Shown: positions 13,492 through 41,946 of the stretch, piece by piece
Position numbering within the stretch: position 1 is the stretch's first letter
How the letters are laid out: every line of letters begins with the position of its first letter
Assembly: GCA_041664445.1 (NCBI GenBank)
Contig: JBAYKT010000004.1
Coordinates: forward strand, 9,976 to 73,975
DNA from: Patescibacteria group bacterium
GTDB lineage: Bacteria > Patescibacteriota > Patescibacteriia > Patescibacteriales > UBA12465
DNA: 64,000 nucleotides
Reading direction: 5' to 3'
Notes under the pieces: model-generated
What the model was told of the DNA's origin: nothing
What the model saw: only the letters and a program-made list of their open reading frames with translations
Databases searched by the model: none
Program-made: the position numbers and the translations under genes

Positions 13492-13523
13492 AAAAACACC
13501 GAGATTTCGGTGTTTTTTGTTTT
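13492..13523. terminator. Bidirectional terminator between convergent typA and rnhB
   Basis: AAAAACACCGA-gatt-TCGGTGTTTTT, with an A-run on one side and a T-run on the other. Confidence 0.7.
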
Positions 13524-13536
13524 ATTAAATTAAGAA

Positions 13537-14157
13537 TTACAGAATATCTTTTATCGGCGCAAAACTGCGGCGATGAATAGGGCAGGGGCCGTATTTAGCA
13601 ATCATGGCTAAATGTTCTTTAGTACCGTAGCCTTTATGTTTGGCAAATAAATATTCCGGATATTCCTTGTCAGCTTCAGTCATTATCCAGTCGCGGCTGA
13701 CTTTGGCGATAATAGAAGCGGCGGCAATTGCCCAAACCTGAGCATCGCCTTTAATAATTGCAGTTTGCGGTTTTGTCAGTTTAGGTATTTTAAAACCGCC
13801 GTCTAGCAAGATATAGTCTGGTTCAATCTTTAGTTTTTTAATCGCCCGGCGCATAGCCAAGAAACTGGCTTGTAAAATATTTATTTTATCAATATCTTCA
13901 TGGCTGACAACCCCAATTTCGACAGCCAACACTTTTTCTCGAATCGCTTTAAAAATAAGTTCGCGTTTTTTGGCGGAAAGTTTTTTGGAATCGGCAACTA
14001 GTTCTAAATCCCCCGGTTCTATTTTGAAATCTGGACCAATAACCACGCAGGCCGCTACTACCGGGCCGGCCAGGGGGCCGCGGCCGGCCTCATCCACACC
14101 GCCAATTAGCTGGTAGCCAAGTTTAAAAAATTTATTTTCTGTTTCTAAGTTTAACAT
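13537..14157 (-). CDS. rnhB: Ribonuclease HII
   Basis: GVDEAGRGPLAGPVVAA, DSKKLS and the GYGT..H C-terminal motifs. Confidence 0.9.
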   Translation of the reverse strand: MLNLETENKFFKLGYQLIGGVDEAGRGPLAGPVVAACVVIGPDFKIEPGDLELVADSKKLSAKKRELIFKAIREKVLAVEIGVVSHEDIDKINILQASFLAMRRAIKKLKIEPDYILLDGGFKIPKLTKPQTAIIKGDAQVWAIAAASIIAKVSRDWIMTEADKEYPEYLFAKHKGYGTKEHLAMIAKYGPCPIHRRSFAPIKDIL

Positions 14158-14196
14158 AAAGAAATTATAACATATACTTGGTATTTTTGCTCATAT

Positions 14197-14266
14197 TTGA
14201 CAAAAAAGCCATTTATATTTATAAGTCGTCTTTACTATTGACATATATTTTTCTTTGTAGTATACT
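14197..14266 (+). promoter_or_regulatory. Two tandem sigma70-type promoters (TTGACA-17-TATAAG and TTGACA-17-TATACT)
   Basis: TTGACA 14197-14202 with TATAAG 14220-14225. TTGACA 14238-14243 with TATACT 14261-14266. Both spacers are exactly 17 nt. Confidence 0.6.
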
Positions 14267-14271
14267 ATCCG

Positions 14272-14465
14272 CAGTGCTTTGTTCATAAGAATGCCAGACG
14301 CCATAGCCTTTCGGGATAAGAAAAGACAAAAAATATGCTTGAAACAAGGCTTCCTGGGTGGGCACACAGACTCATTTGGAACTCAGGTTCCGCGTCGCCG
14401 TTTAAGGTAGGGATGAGCCCTTACTAAGAACTTAAGGGTAGGAGATTAAACTTCTGCCCTTTTTT
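14272..14465 (+). promoter_or_regulatory. Candidate structured leader/attenuator RNA (or independent small RNA)
   Basis: Runs from about 7 nt after the -10 box to a strong intrinsic terminator. Contains hairpin GGAAC-tcag-GTTCC (14378-14391), direct repeat TTAAGGTAGGGA / TTAAGGGTAGGA, mutually exclusive helices CCCTTA(14418-23):TAAGGG(14433-38) versus the terminator, and a 39-codon ORF (14291-14410). Confidence 0.45.
14436..14465 (+). terminator. Intrinsic terminator closing the 14272.. transcript
   Basis: 9-bp stem GGGTAGGAG / CTTCTGCCC (two G-U pairs), loop ATTAAA, then TTTTTT (14460-14465). Confidence 0.7.
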
Positions 14466-14544
14466 ATTGGTCTTGTTTTTTTTCAATTTTCGTGTTAAAG
14501 ATAAAATAGTTCTCAAACAATATTTCTAACTAAAACTTTTAGTC

Positions 14545-15003
14545 ATGGCCGAGAAGCAAGAATGTTCTTATGTGTTCCAGAGCGGGGTATATAAAAATTT
14601 TTCTGTGGAGCAAGTTTTTTTGAAAGACCCAATCCATATCGCCCGACTTTATCAGCGGTCTTTTAAGAATAAGACGGCGATAAAAACTCCTAATCAGCTG
14701 CAACTGGCAGTAGAAAATCTCTTAGAAAAAATTCGGGGAATTGATGTAACCAAGGATTGTCCTTATTGTAAGGCTGCTAAAGTTATGAATTTTTTGCTGC
14801 CGGATTTTGGCACTGTTAATGGCGGTCTATTATGCTGTGATGACTCTGTTTGTCGGGAAGAGCTGAAGTCGGCTCGTAGCGGCGAATTGCATGCCATTAG
14901 CGATTTTATGCTAATGGTCAGCTACATGCGCCGTCCGCAAGCACAAAAAATTGTGGGAATCTTCAAATCAACCCACAAAAACTATCAGGAAGCCTTTGCC
15001 TAA
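14545..15003 (+). CDS. Hypothetical Cys-rich protein (possible zinc ribbon)
   Basis: 152-aa ORF with CPYC ... CCDDSVC cysteine clusters. The N-terminal YVFQSGVYKNFSVEQVFLKDPIHIARLY only loosely recalls DUF3820-type boxes. Followed by its own terminator. Confidence 0.6.
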   Translation: MAEKQECSYVFQSGVYKNFSVEQVFLKDPIHIARLYQRSFKNKTAIKTPNQLQLAVENLLEKIRGIDVTKDCPYCKAAKVMNFLLPDFGTVNGGLLCCDDSVCREELKSARSGELHAISDFMLMVSYMRRPQAQKIVGIFKSTHKNYQEAFA

Positions 15004-15032
15004 TACCTCCTAGGCAACTCCGTCTTCCATCT

Positions 15033-15064
15033 GTCCGCGTTTCCAAAGAATGCGGACTTTTTTT
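15033..15064 (+). terminator. Terminator after 14545..15003
   Basis: GTCCGC - 13-nt loop - GCGGAC followed by TTTTTTT. Confidence 0.65.
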
Positions 15065-15119
15065 GCCTAATGTGTTAAAATTATAAAAGAGAATTAACAA
15101 TTTTGATATTTTTATTAAT

Positions 15120-15647
15120 ATGAAAAAAGAACAATTTTTATTAATTATTGTGGCTATAATTTTAGTTTCCGCTATTGTTTTAAGAGCGGTTCAATTATTT
15201 GATAAGCAAAAAATTGAAGACGAAAACTTAACACCGATTGCTGTTTCCGAGCAAGCGCCTCTTGTTAGTACTACCACAGACAAGACTAATGAGGTTGATA
15301 TTAATATTGCGGAGCCGGTAGCTACCAGCACTGTGCCCGTCGTCTCTATTTTCCAGCCTTTAGCGGCCGCAGTAATTAGTTCTCCCTTAGAAGTTCTTGG
15401 CCAGGCTCCGGGAAATTGGTTTTTTGAAGCCACCTTGCCAGTTAAACTGCTTGCAGCTGATGGCGAAATAATCGTGGCTCATTACGCTGAGGCGCAGAGT
15501 GATTGGATGACCGAAGATTTAGTACCCTTTAAAGCTACTTTAGGATTTACCACCACCGCGACTAGCGGTTATTTAATTATTTCTAAAGACAATCCTTCGG
15601 GGTTGCCGGAAAATGACGCCTCTTTCCAAATCCCGGTTAATTTTTAA
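15120..15647 (+). CDS. Membrane-anchored secreted protein with Gmad2-like immunoglobulin domain
   Basis: N-terminal anchor LLIIVAIILVSAIVL. C-terminal SPLEVLGQAPGNWFFEATLPVKLLAADGEIIV...GYLIISKDNPSG fits the Gmad2 pattern as I remember it. Confidence 0.7.
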   Translation: MKKEQFLLIIVAIILVSAIVLRAVQLFDKQKIEDENLTPIAVSEQAPLVSTTTDKTNEVDINIAEPVATSTVPVVSIFQPLAAAVISSPLEVLGQAPGNWFFEATLPVKLLAADGEIIVAHYAEAQSDWMTEDLVPFKATLGFTTTATSGYLIISKDNPSGLPENDASFQIPVNF

Positions 15648-18568: not shown

Positions 18569-18597
18569 TTGACCCTAGGGGGCTGGTGGTGTATAAT
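18569..18597 (+). promoter_or_regulatory. Promoter of the mraZ (dcw) operon
   Basis: TTGACC (18569-74), 17 nt, TATAAT (18592-97). Confidence 0.65.
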
Positions 18598-18663
18598 TAA
18601 ACTTGTAAGGCAAATTGTGGGGAATGGAGGTGATTTTATTAAATCTCTTCACCCAGCAAAACG

Positions 18664-25306: not shown

Positions 25307-25639
25307 TTAGCCGAAGATGGCGACAGCAATTTTTGATTTCGGATGAATAATTTTACCCGGACTTTCTACAACTGTGCCGTTGAGACTGAAAGAGGGGAAA
25401 ACCCGATACTCGCTGTCAAATTCGACAACATTTACAGCCACTTTAGTGAGCTTCAGATTGGTTTCCAGGAAGTTAGTGACTCCCTGAGCAACTTTTTCTT
25501 TACTTTTGCCATTAATACTTGGCAAGTGGCCACGAATGGCGTCCATCACTTGTGCGGCTGCATTATCCGCAATTTCGTCTGCTAAAACCTTCATCATACC
25601 ATTTGCGGTATGAACATTTAAACCTTTTGCTTTGTTCAT
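25307..25639 (-). CDS. Hypothetical 110-aa protein
   Basis: Isolated minus-strand ORF with its own terminator and an AT-rich upstream region. No motif recognised. Confidence 0.55.
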   Translation of the reverse strand: MNKAKGLNVHTANGMMKVLADEIADNAAAQVMDAIRGHLPSINGKSKEKVAQGVTNFLETNLKLTKVAVNVVEFDSEYRVFPSFSLNGTVVESPGKIIHPKSKIAVAIFG

Positions 25640-25737
25640 GATAACTTTTTTTAAAAAAATTTTGAAAAAGAACTTAACTAATAAAGTAAAATACTTTATT
25701 AATCTATAATATACTATTTCTTCATTTTTGTCAATAT

Positions 25738-26694
25738 ATGAAACTTGTGGTTGGATTTATTACTTATAACGATTCTAGCGCCAAATATTTAGGTGATTTT
25801 TTGCCTAGTTTAAGGGCCGCTTTGGCTTTTTTACCGCTTGAAGAAAGGCTAATTTTTGCCTTTGATAATAGTAGTCCAGATAACAATTTTAACCGCTTGT
25901 CGCTGGAATATTTTATTAAAGATAATCCTGAGGAATTAATCAGATTAACTAGAAATAAAAATCTCGGTTTTAGCCGCGCCTATAATTTTATGATTAGGCA
26001 GGCTAAAAAATTGCATGCCGATTATTTTTTAGCCATCAATCCGGACACCATTATGGAGCCAGATACTATTCAAAAATTATTGGCAAAAATCAGTAGCGAC
26101 CCGAAAATAGCCTCAGTCAGCCCGAAAATTTTGCGCTGGGATTTTGTTCGGCAAATCAAGACTAAACAGCTTGATTCTTGTGGTTTAGTGCTAAAATCTG
26201 GCTTAAGCTTTAGAGATTTGGGGCAGGGAGAGCTCGATGAGGGCCAGTATGACACCGCCTCCATTCTGGGGCCATCAGGTGCCGCCGCCCTGTATCGTCT
26301 GAGTGCTTTGGAAAAAATTAAGACTAATCACGACTATTTCGATTCCCGGTTTTTTATGTACAAAGAGGATTGCGATTTAGCTTATCGGCTGGAGAAAGCC
26401 GGTTTCAAATCGCGTTTAGTGGCCGAGGCTTTAGTCTATCATGATCGCACAGTTGGGTCTTTTGGCCAGGGATTTTGGGGGCGTTTTAAGGAAAGGCGCC
26501 AGCTAAGTCGACAGGCAAGAGCCTGGTCTTTTAAGAACCAACACCTTCTTTTTGTCAAACATTTTTGGCAAGAGAATCTGGTCAGCAAACTGCTAATTAT
26601 GTCTCGGATTATTGTTTTGTTTATTTTTTCGCTTATATTAGAACAATTTAACTTAAAAGAATATTTGTCGATTTGGCGCTCTTTCAAGGCTTGA
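25738..26694 (+). CDS. Family 2 glycosyltransferase
   Basis: VGFITYN.., FDNSSPD, LAINPD (DxD-type) and YKEDCDLAYR, typical of GT2 rhamnosyl/glycosyltransferases. C-terminal hydrophobic segment. Confidence 0.8.
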   Translation: MKLVVGFITYNDSSAKYLGDFLPSLRAALAFLPLEERLIFAFDNSSPDNNFNRLSLEYFIKDNPEELIRLTRNKNLGFSRAYNFMIRQAKKLHADYFLAINPDTIMEPDTIQKLLAKISSDPKIASVSPKILRWDFVRQIKTKQLDSCGLVLKSGLSFRDLGQGELDEGQYDTASILGPSGAAALYRLSALEKIKTNHDYFDSRFFMYKEDCDLAYRLEKAGFKSRLVAEALVYHDRTVGSFGQGFWGRFKERRQLSRQARAWSFKNQHLLFVKHFWQENLVSKLLIMSRIIVLFIFSLILEQFNLKEYLSIWRSFKA

Positions 26695-40965: not shown

Positions 40966-41841
40966 TTAAACGTCCATTTTTTTAAAAGCCTTAGCGGCTC
41001 GTTCACGTGATTTTTTTTGGCCGGAAATTTCGGCATAATCTCGGCGGCTAATTATTTCGCCGTTTTTAACGAACAGAAATCGGTAATGACCGGTACAAGA
41101 AAATTCAATCACAAATTTCGGCGCTTTGATAGCCTTAATAACATCTCGGATGTCCAGCAAGAAGGGATTTATTTCCCTAAAGCTAATAACGATTACCCCG
41201 CCAAATTCGCGCTGGCGATAGTTTAATCCCCGAAAGTTAGTTGTGGATAGAATTTTATTTTCCTCTTCCGTGCTCTTAATTAATTCAGGGCGCATTTTAG
41301 CTAGAGCTTCAATTTCAGGGTCATGTTTTTCGGTAACGATTTCCGTAATCATTTTACCTAAAAGTTTTAAGTAGCCGACGGTTTTGCCGACATTAAAATC
41401 AAACGCTTTTTGAACGGCGATTGCTTTTAAAATGCGGGCGGCCTCTAAATCGGCGGTTTCTTCATGGCCAAGTTCAATTAGACCGGCGCGTTTGTACAGA
41501 TATTCTGGAATGCTAATCCGGAGTTTTTTAAGCTCGTGAATATAGCCGGCAGAATCTCTCATGCCTTCAGACGTAAAAATTTTTCCGTCATAGCTCCAGA
41601 GCTTCAGGGTTTTACGCTGAGCGATAAATTCGGCCAGTCGTTTTTTTTCATCTTCGGTTTTTGGTTCTATTTCTAGAACGTAAACTTCTTCGCAACGAAG
41701 ACGATAGTTCATCACATCTTCAAACAGGCAGGGAATAATTTGAGCTCCCTTGGGTGTTTGCAGCATAATCTCGGTAGCCGCGAAAATTAATTCCGGCTTT
41801 TGAGAATTGATAAAAATTAAAACATGATTTGCTTTGTTCAT
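40966..41841 (-). CDS. Hypothetical protein, unassigned family (paralogue B of 461..1489)
   Basis: 291-aa ORF. N-terminus VLIFINSQKPELIFAATEIM and later blocks align collinearly with the 342-aa ORF at 461..1489. Confidence 0.75.
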   Translation of the reverse strand: MNKANHVLIFINSQKPELIFAATEIMLQTPKGAQIIPCLFEDVMNYRLRCEEVYVLEIEPKTEDEKKRLAEFIAQRKTLKLWSYDGKIFTSEGMRDSAGYIHELKKLRISIPEYLYKRAGLIELGHEETADLEAARILKAIAVQKAFDFNVGKTVGYLKLLGKMITEIVTEKHDPEIEALAKMRPELIKSTEEENKILSTTNFRGLNYRQREFGGVIVISFREINPFLLDIRDVIKAIKAPKFVIEFSCTGHYRFLFVKNGEIISRRDYAEISGQKKSRERAAKAFKKMDV

Positions 41842-41916
41842 TTGGTAACTTTTTTTGAGCGTTTTTATTATTTTAAAGTGCGATTCACCCGTAAATAATA
41901 ATATATTTTTAACAAG

Positions 41917-41946
41917 TTGTCAAATATGGTCTCCGGCCTGTATAAT
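41917..41946 (+). promoter_or_regulatory. Candidate promoter for 41967..42536
   Basis: TTGTCA (41917-22), 18 nt, TATAAT (41941-46). Confidence 0.5.

Follow-up and report, generated by a model that had tools for sequence, protein, structure and literature searches.

A candidate clade-specific, structured small RNA gene of Candidatus Falkowbacteria with a conserved 5′ motif complementary to two start codons

RybB, OmrA/B, and MicC of enterobacteria are trans-encoded base-pairing small RNAs (sRNAs) in which a seed at the 5′ end occludes the start codon. For the Patescibacteria (candidate phyla radiation, CPR), a group with tiny genomes, mostly uncultured members, and episymbiotic lifestyles, almost no regulatory RNAs are known to us, and our full-text literature searches found no base-pairing sRNA described for the group. 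Here, we analyzed a 64,000-nt stretch of DNA (the window; contig JBAYKT010000004.1) whose host is Candidatus Falkowbacteria (Patescibacteria/CPR, GC content of about 40%), and in which the spacer between rnhB and a gene for a Cys-rich orphan protein holds a predicted transcription unit. We consider it likely that 14273-14465 on the plus strand is a stand-alone structured sRNA gene of about 190 nt. With somewhat less assurance, we favor a clade-specific, trans-acting base-pairing sRNA that would occlude start codons as the best explanation overall. The candidate resembles RybB, OmrA/B, and MicC in being a stand-alone non-coding gene with its own promoter and Rho-independent terminator, and in having a conserved 5′ stretch of ~11-12 nt that is predicted to be largely single-stranded and could pair with the start regions of several unlinked mRNAs. 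It differs from them in its patescibacterial host, in the lack of any sequence or structure homology (Rfam searches were negative), and in its body, a conserved four-way junction with invariant loops that is more elaborate than the usual seed plus hairpins.

Orthologous spacers were collected through homologs of RnhB and of the Cys-rich protein and through exact-protein look-ups. The same architecture was found in ten distinct sequences, those of the window and of loci L003, L004, L005, L022, L023, L025, L026, L027, and L028, with L003 and L004 being the closest relatives (RnhB 97-98% identical). In every ortholog, the RNA lies directly upstream of the Cys-rich gene and on the same strand; this includes L025, in which the two are present with a different upstream neighbor in place of rnhB. 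Three distant loci (L006, L008, and L030) keep the unit of promoter, RNA, and terminator at the same position. They lack the four-way junction and retain a hairpin with a long purine-rich loop, together with the terminator. These distant versions lie at L006:2622-2815 (minus strand), L008:2740-2895 (minus strand), and L030:1805-1945, and the conserved 5′ motif of the RNA is kept in L008 and L030, and not in L006. At other Falkowbacteria rnhB loci (L007 and L009-L018), neither the RNA nor the Cys-rich gene was found beside rnhB, with the exception of L014, where a distant Cys-rich homolog comes with a short spacer that lacks the RNA. Covariance model R1, covering helices P1-P5 of the RNA, recovered the ten orthologs at 71-120 bits. 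Neither the window nor 31 other loci yielded any additional copy, and the model missed the diverged versions of L006, L008, and L030. A metagenome scan using the Cys-rich protein returned just 4 loci. From these comparisons, the predicted RNA gene is limited to a narrow sub-clade of Candidatus Falkowbacteria.

The elements that delimit the transcription unit, and the promoter-like sites on either side of it, are the following (promoter scores are consensus matches only).

14238-14243 (−35) and 14261-14266 (−10), plus strand: main sRNA promoter, TTGACA-17-TATACT, scan score 11/12, the best site in 13500-15200

14434-14461, with T6 at 14460-14465, plus strand: intrinsic terminator AAGGGTAGGAG / CTTCTGCCCTT, with an 11-bp stem and a 6-nt loop, found by scan

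14197-14202 and 14220-14225, plus strand: upstream promoter-like site, TTGACA-17-TATAAG, which fails the scan rule (T at −10 position 6)

14468-14507, plus strand: promoter-like region of the Cys-rich gene, read by eye as TTGTTT-17-TAAAGA, or by scan as TTTTCA-16-TAAAAT at 14480-14507 (9/12)

The main promoter, including its spacer, is nearly invariant across 12 orthologs, and the scan scored it 12/12 in L008 and L030 and 11/12 in L025; all orthologs scanned or read by eye reach 11-12/12. Judging from the position of the −10 element, transcription would start at about 14273. The original prediction, which was made from the window sequence alone, had proposed two promoters and a strong terminator. 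Both promoter sites are indeed present, but the upstream one fails the −10 rule and its −10 element is not conserved (TATATA, TTTAGG, and TATTAG in close relatives, which keep the −35 element); it is probably not a second sRNA promoter. The terminator was borne out by the scan, which also found it in L030 and L025, and every ortholog that we folded had an equivalent hairpin and U tract, at approximately −14 to −17 kcal/mol in folds with strand 1 of the alternative-helix layout (see below) blocked. Between the terminator and the Cys-rich gene, promoter-like sites occur at the same position in L008 (TTGATA-18-TAAAAT, 10/12) and L030 (TTGACT-17-TATTTT with a TG extension), and similar TTGATT-17-TAnAGA sites were seen by eye in the remaining orthologs. 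Since the unit has its own promoter and its own intrinsic terminator, both conserved in the orthologs, and a separate promoter-like site lies downstream, it reads as a stand-alone gene rather than as a leader.

The RNA is predicted to fold into a four-way junction formed by P1-P4 (14297-14396), followed by a further hairpin, P5, and the terminator.

14297-14301/14392-14396, plus strand: P1, invariant except for a change of C-G to U-G

14305-14310/14346-14351, plus strand: P2, with a purine-rich loop at 14311-14345; four of six pairs changed on both sides

14356-14362/14371-14377, plus strand: P3, with the loop CAnACAGM at 14363-14370; three of nine pairs changed on both sides

14378-14382/14387-14391, plus strand: P4; five of eight pairs changed on both sides

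14400-14412/14419-14431, plus strand: extended P5, with an outer part GUUU..GGU/ACU..GAAC and an inner part AGGG/CCUU; nine of 16 pairs changed on both sides

Pairs were counted on alignment A7, for which nine sequences were segmented by hand and aligned with MAFFT using N padding, with all 166 columns preserved. Over the whole structure, 98.1% of cells are paired (99% for the P5 stem-loop, 14400-14431), and compensatory changes were found in 21 of the 44 pairs. The observed pairing values were matched by 0 of 500 shuffles, and sliding the 3′ partners by 1-3 columns reduced pairing to 34-56%. In P3, for example, GGGUGGG/CCCAUUU is replaced by GAGCCGG/CCGGUUU in L028, GGGCAG/CUGUUU in L025, and CAUAACGGG/CUCGUUGUG in L022, whilst GGAAC/GUUCC of P4 becomes GAAAUC/GAUUUC in L026, GGGAUUUC/GAAAUUCC in L025, and UCGAG/UUCGA in L022. 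The G-U pairs in P3 establish the plus strand as the transcribed one. When given a plain, unbiased MAFFT alignment, RNAalifold independently found P2, P3, P4, P5, and the terminator, with compensatory change at 10 pairs, and single-sequence minimum free energy (MFE) folds of L026, L028, and L025 recovered the same four-way junction. Folding energy alone is not significant (MFE z-score of −1.41 for 14270-14470). Taken together, a fold of four-way junction, P5, and terminator is strongly supported by covariation. The loops are conserved as well: L3 (CAnACAGM), L5 (AUGAGC, 14413-14418, identical in eight of nine orthologs), and the purine-rich stretch of the P2 loop are nearly invariant, and the last is kept even in the distant L006, L008, and L030. 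P5 and the 5′ half of the terminator have a repeated UUUAAGG...GGAGAU motif in common.

Viewed in the window sequence alone, the same region looks like an attenuator of the trpL/hisL/pheL type, with a short open reading frame (ORF), a run of identical codons, alternative hairpins, and a terminator. This was the favored reading of the original prediction, in which a ribosome stalling at the Arg codons of a leader ORF would select an antiterminator over the terminator.

14291 (ATG) to 14408-14410 (TAG), plus strand: 39-codon ORF ending PRRRLR, present in the window sequence

The ORF, its Arg run, and a 1:2/2:3/3:4 arrangement of helices all exist in the window. However, the ORF is interrupted or absent in eight of the nine orthologs: in L003 and L004 an in-frame TAA cuts it to 18 codons, L026 and L022 have different short ORFs, and L027, L028, and L005 have no equivalent. 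The Arg run CGTCGCCGT (CGT CGC CGT) is replaced by CGTCAAACG or CGTCAAAAAT in L003, L004, and L027; it is thus lost in the closest relatives and was found in the window only. Because the ORF crosses the P1-P4 helices with their compensatory changes, selection acts at the level of the RNA and not of a protein. No ORF is conserved on either strand among the orthologs (the minus strand being checked by inspection), and this, with the 21 compensatory pairs, fits a non-coding gene conserved as RNA. Two smaller coding candidates were also rejected, namely an internal ORF from an AUG in the P2 loop, which is not conserved, and a minus-strand ORF from ATGAACAAAGC (14286), whose frame and length vary (31 aa in the window and 13-16 aa elsewhere, by inspection).

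The antiterminator fared little better. The competing helix CCCTTA (14418-14423):TAAGGG (14433-14438) folds at −7.7 kcal/mol with strand 1 blocked. Helix 1:2 is genuine, with cognate and non-cognate strands giving −7.1 and −4.4 kcal/mol, respectively, whereas the mean duplex energy of the 2:3 helix is −8.95 kcal/mol for cognate and −8.96 kcal/mol for non-cognate strands, that is, without covariation. With strand 1 blocked, the nascent 2:3 hairpin, which would be the antiterminator, reaches just −1.8 kcal/mol in L003 and −3.4 kcal/mol in L004, where it is nearly lost, and the terminator is the MFE structure of the full 3′ domain in every ortholog, even under that constraint. No arginine genes were found downstream of the spacer, nor any other cognate biosynthetic operon of the kind that follows trpL, hisL, and pheL. 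The comparative data therefore refute the leader-peptide attenuator, to which we assign next to no probability: its ORF, codon run, and antiterminator are all unconserved. A trp-like layout that is convincing in one sequence, and gone once close relatives are compared, is a caution for similar predictions. The independent sRNA that had been offered as a fallback is instead what the conserved transcription unit, the covarying fold, and the absence of a conserved ORF support.

The most conserved element of the RNA is a short motif close to its predicted 5′ end, which we propose as a seed and whose reverse complement recurs at two start codons.

14275-14286, plus strand: conserved 5′ motif UGCUUUGUUCAT (GCUUUGUUCAU in orthologs), proposed seed

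25628-25639, minus strand: candidate target 1, AUGAACAAAGCA, at the start codon of a 110-aa orphan gene (25307-25639)

41830-41841, minus strand: candidate target 2, AUGAACAAAGCA, at the start codon of a 291-aa orphan gene (40966-41841)

The 5′ end of the predicted sRNA reads UGCUUUGUUCAU, and the motif occupies the predicted 5′ end in close relatives too. As an 11-mer it is exact in most orthologs, including the distant L030; L026 and L027 deviate by one base, L008 has a one-base deletion (GCUUGUUCAU), and L006 lacks the motif. It persists in L008 and L030 although the junction is gone. Its mean unpaired probability is 0.5-0.7 in eight of ten orthologs, compared with ~0.44 for the whole RNA, and 0.2 in L022 and L030. 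Two exact tandem copies of the motif and a degenerate third were seen at L005:2847-2890 (minus strand) and L023:1700-1740, and a 19-nt insertion repeating GUUCAUAAAG, a partial duplication of the motif, at L004:2850-2885 (minus strand). Intramolecular pairing of the seed with the P5 loop (GUUCAU:AUGAGC) or with the P2 loop (UUUGUU:GACAAA) is possible on paper, and was set aside because the partners are invariant. The P2, L3, and L5 loops were also considered as extra seeds, and showed no enrichment against 57 translation start regions.

The 12-nt reverse complement of the seed, ATGAACAAAGCA, has exactly two further occurrences in the 64 kb, compared with 0.01 expected from shuffles, and each coincides exactly with the start codon of an orphan gene on the minus strand. 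Orthologs of target 1 carry AUGGACAAAGC and AUGAACAAGGU, with changes that are compatible with wobble pairing, and those of target 2 carry AUGAACAAAGCAAAU (two sequences) and AUGGACAAAGCAAAU. In six additional sequences of the two genes, AUGRACAAAGC stands at the site, with a single case of AUGAACAAGGU; the changes are solely A-to-G and C-to-U, and pairing is kept as G-U. The N-terminus of the 291-aa protein is M[ND]KAN or M[ND]KAD in 12/12 homologs, down to 52% identity, and the next residues vary. The 110-aa and 291-aa genes each have their own TTGACA-17-TATTAT promoter and no obvious Shine-Dalgarno sequence. They are unrelated; both start with AUGAACAAAGCAAA, carry AAAAAAAGUUAYC immediately before it (25640-25745 and 41842-41945, minus strand), and may be co-regulated. 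The 5′ untranslated region of the 110-aa gene (25680-25700, minus strand) also contains a perfect 9-bp hairpin, AAUAAAGUA-UUU-UACUUUAUU, that is invariant in four orthologs (alignment A5).

Based on these features, the RNA would be transcribed from a near-consensus, sigma-70-type promoter up to its own intrinsic terminator, and base pairing between its 5′ tail UGCUUUGUUCAU and AUGAACAAAGCA would cover the start codons of at least two mRNAs, from the minus-strand genes at 25639 and 41841. As a trans-acting sRNA, the RNA would thereby block or modulate translation initiation, whilst the structured body might provide stability, or a platform for binding of a protein or ligand. Expression as predicted, pairing in the cell, and the direction of regulation are what we infer from the sequences. 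No chaperone is known for the sRNA.

Several observations weigh against this reading. The seed shows no variation of a kind that would permit a compensatory test, and no compensatory seed/target change was seen. The starts of genes in this genome are rich in A, and unrelated genes often begin with the same 11-mer (ATGAAAAAAAT in three cases and ATGAAAAAAGA in two); if G-U pairing is admitted, 11-nt runs with the seed region also arise at four other translation start regions. For 12-mers from the rest of the sRNA, three chance matches, each a single one, were found in the window, none of them at an mRNA start, and RNAduplex ranks the two candidate genes third and fourth only. The wobble-compatible transitions at the target sites are mostly expected by chance, because 8 of the 11 site positions allow them. 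As to the fold, the hand fitting of the covariation alignment to the structure makes the share of paired cells too high, and P1, backed by invariant pairs and one G-U change only, rests mainly on thermodynamic folds. Despite the fitted alignment, we regard the fold as secure because of the double-sided changes and the independent RNAalifold result. Lastly, the RNA keeps a constant position ahead of the Cys-rich gene, L025 included, which would be compatible with a role in cis as well. On this evidence, that the genes at 25639 and 41841 are real targets of the sRNA is close to an even call, leaning slightly toward doubt. A bolder proposal is doubtful, though conceivable: that this is the first base-pairing sRNA regulon described in Patescibacteria/CPR, in which the seed would occlude at least two orphan-gene starts and the junction body, as a sensor or protein-binding module, would gate the seed. 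Gating could, for instance, work through pairing of UUUGUU with GACAAA in the P2 loop of the same molecule.

That constant position bears most directly on a leader acting in cis, whether a ligand-binding riboswitch or a protein-controlled attenuator, in which P1-P4 would sense a signal and set read-through into the operon of the Cys-rich gene, the Gmad2-domain gene, and cysS. Its architecture recalls four-way-junction riboswitches of the SAM-I type, in which a multi-helix junction closed by P1 is followed by an intrinsic terminator and a gene on the same strand; here, too, a short P1 closes the junction, a terminator follows, the RNA precedes the Cys-rich gene in every ortholog with or without rnhB, and the downstream promoter-like sites score only moderately (9-10/12). 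However, no conserved pairing competes with the terminator, as a helix of a SAM-I-type riboswitch would, and the conserved hairpin P5 separates the junction from the terminator. A further ~80 nt with promoter-like sites lie between the terminator and the start codon of the Cys-rich gene. Neither a riboswitch nor a T-box was matched in Rfam, even at E values up to 10, and the phylogenetic range is very narrow. Moreover, L008 and L030 lose the junction yet keep the 5′ motif and terminator, and L014 has a Cys-rich homolog without the RNA. We therefore consider a cis-acting leader rather unlikely, and a trans-acting sRNA is the reading we retain. The T-box, brought to mind by the downstream cysS and a GGGUGG sequence, was rejected in its own right: apart from the missing match, GGGUGG forms the 5′ strand of P3, where it covaries (GAGCCGG in L028 and GGGCAG in L025).

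A scaffold or protein-binding RNA, that is, a sponge or ribonucleoprotein partner, possibly of the Cys-rich protein itself, would account for other features. The invariant loops AUGAGC and CAnACAGM, the purine-rich P2 loop that the distant loci retain, and the 5′ motif would in that case contact protein, and the repeat shared by P5 and the terminator as well as the tight linkage to the Cys-rich gene would find a place. Nothing, however, connects RNA binding with the Cys-rich protein (Pfam, NCBIfam, and PDB give no match for it, and its structure is poorly predicted), the protein occurs without the RNA in L014, and the exact antisense matches at two start codons would be left unexplained. We regard this alternative as improbable, and continue to prefer base pairing in trans.

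A match to a known RNA class would have refuted the original prediction, and the searches gave none. Searched against Rfam (Rfam 15) at gathering thresholds, the window and 11 orthologous loci had no match, and relaxing the E value to 10 for three RNA regions brought up chance matches only, driven by the terminator (for example, ar15 at 29 bits compared with a gathering threshold of 40). A highly diverged housekeeping RNA, be it 6S RNA, signal recognition particle (SRP) RNA, RNase P RNA, or transfer-messenger RNA (tmRNA), is suggested by the ~190-nt length and strong promoter, which resemble those of 6S RNA. Nevertheless, the covariation-supported fold is a four-way junction with hairpins and not a rod with a central bubble, and the RNA is confined to its narrow sub-clade, with other Falkowbacteria rnhB loci having none. 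For 6S RNA in particular, there is no paired-end rod with a large central bubble and no Rfam 6S match; for SRP RNA and tmRNA, neither fold nor searches fit, and ARAGORN finds no tmRNA. A housekeeping RNA is accordingly very improbable, and 6S RNA, SRP RNA, and tmRNA were rejected. By comparison of its sequences, the sRNA is instead probably a new, lineage-restricted bacterial regulatory sRNA with an unusually well-defined predicted fold.

The flanks of the spacer, and other features of the window, are as follows.

13537-14157, minus strand: rnhB, on one side of the spacer

14545-15003, plus strand: Cys-rich orphan gene, 152 aa, on the other side

The spacer itself (14158-14544, 387 nt), the largest non-coding stretch according to the original prediction, is the longest gap in the window between ORFs of at least 110 aa. 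RnhB of the window is 97-98% identical to proteins of JAEHGX010000001 and of the complete genome CP066698. Its gene is apparently leaderless, with an extended −10 element (TGTTATAAT) that ends 6 nt ahead of the ATG (14158-14175, minus strand). A block, ATTATAGCATAT, is kept in all orthologous spacers, the distant L006 and L008 included. The 3′ side of the Cys-rich gene holds a gene with a Gmad2 domain, cysS (cysteinyl-tRNA synthetase, CysRS), and dus. The description of the downstream product as uncharacterized and Cys-rich holds: in addition to the lack of a Pfam, NCBIfam, or PDB match, PADLOC gave a weak sub-threshold match only (E = 0.027), and the AlphaFold2 model is poor (mean predicted local distance difference test score, pLDDT, of 50). 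The family (alignment A2) comprises only 12 cluster representatives, all within the same clade, in which C72, C75, C97, C98, and C103 are invariant and H116 is nearly so, a pattern that resembles a zinc finger. No tRNA or tmRNA genes were found in the window. At 18570-18663, a strong Shine-Dalgarno sequence (GGAGGTGAT) lies downstream of a promoter-like TTGACC-17-TATAAT and ~35 nt ahead of the called ATG (18664), and the true start of that gene, or a small ORF, may lie farther upstream.

For a lineage with so few described regulatory RNAs, the sRNA is a candidate new Rfam family. The two orphan genes with AUGAACAAAGCA at the start codon constitute a testable target prediction that, if true, would provide an entry to post-transcriptional regulation in CPR bacteria.

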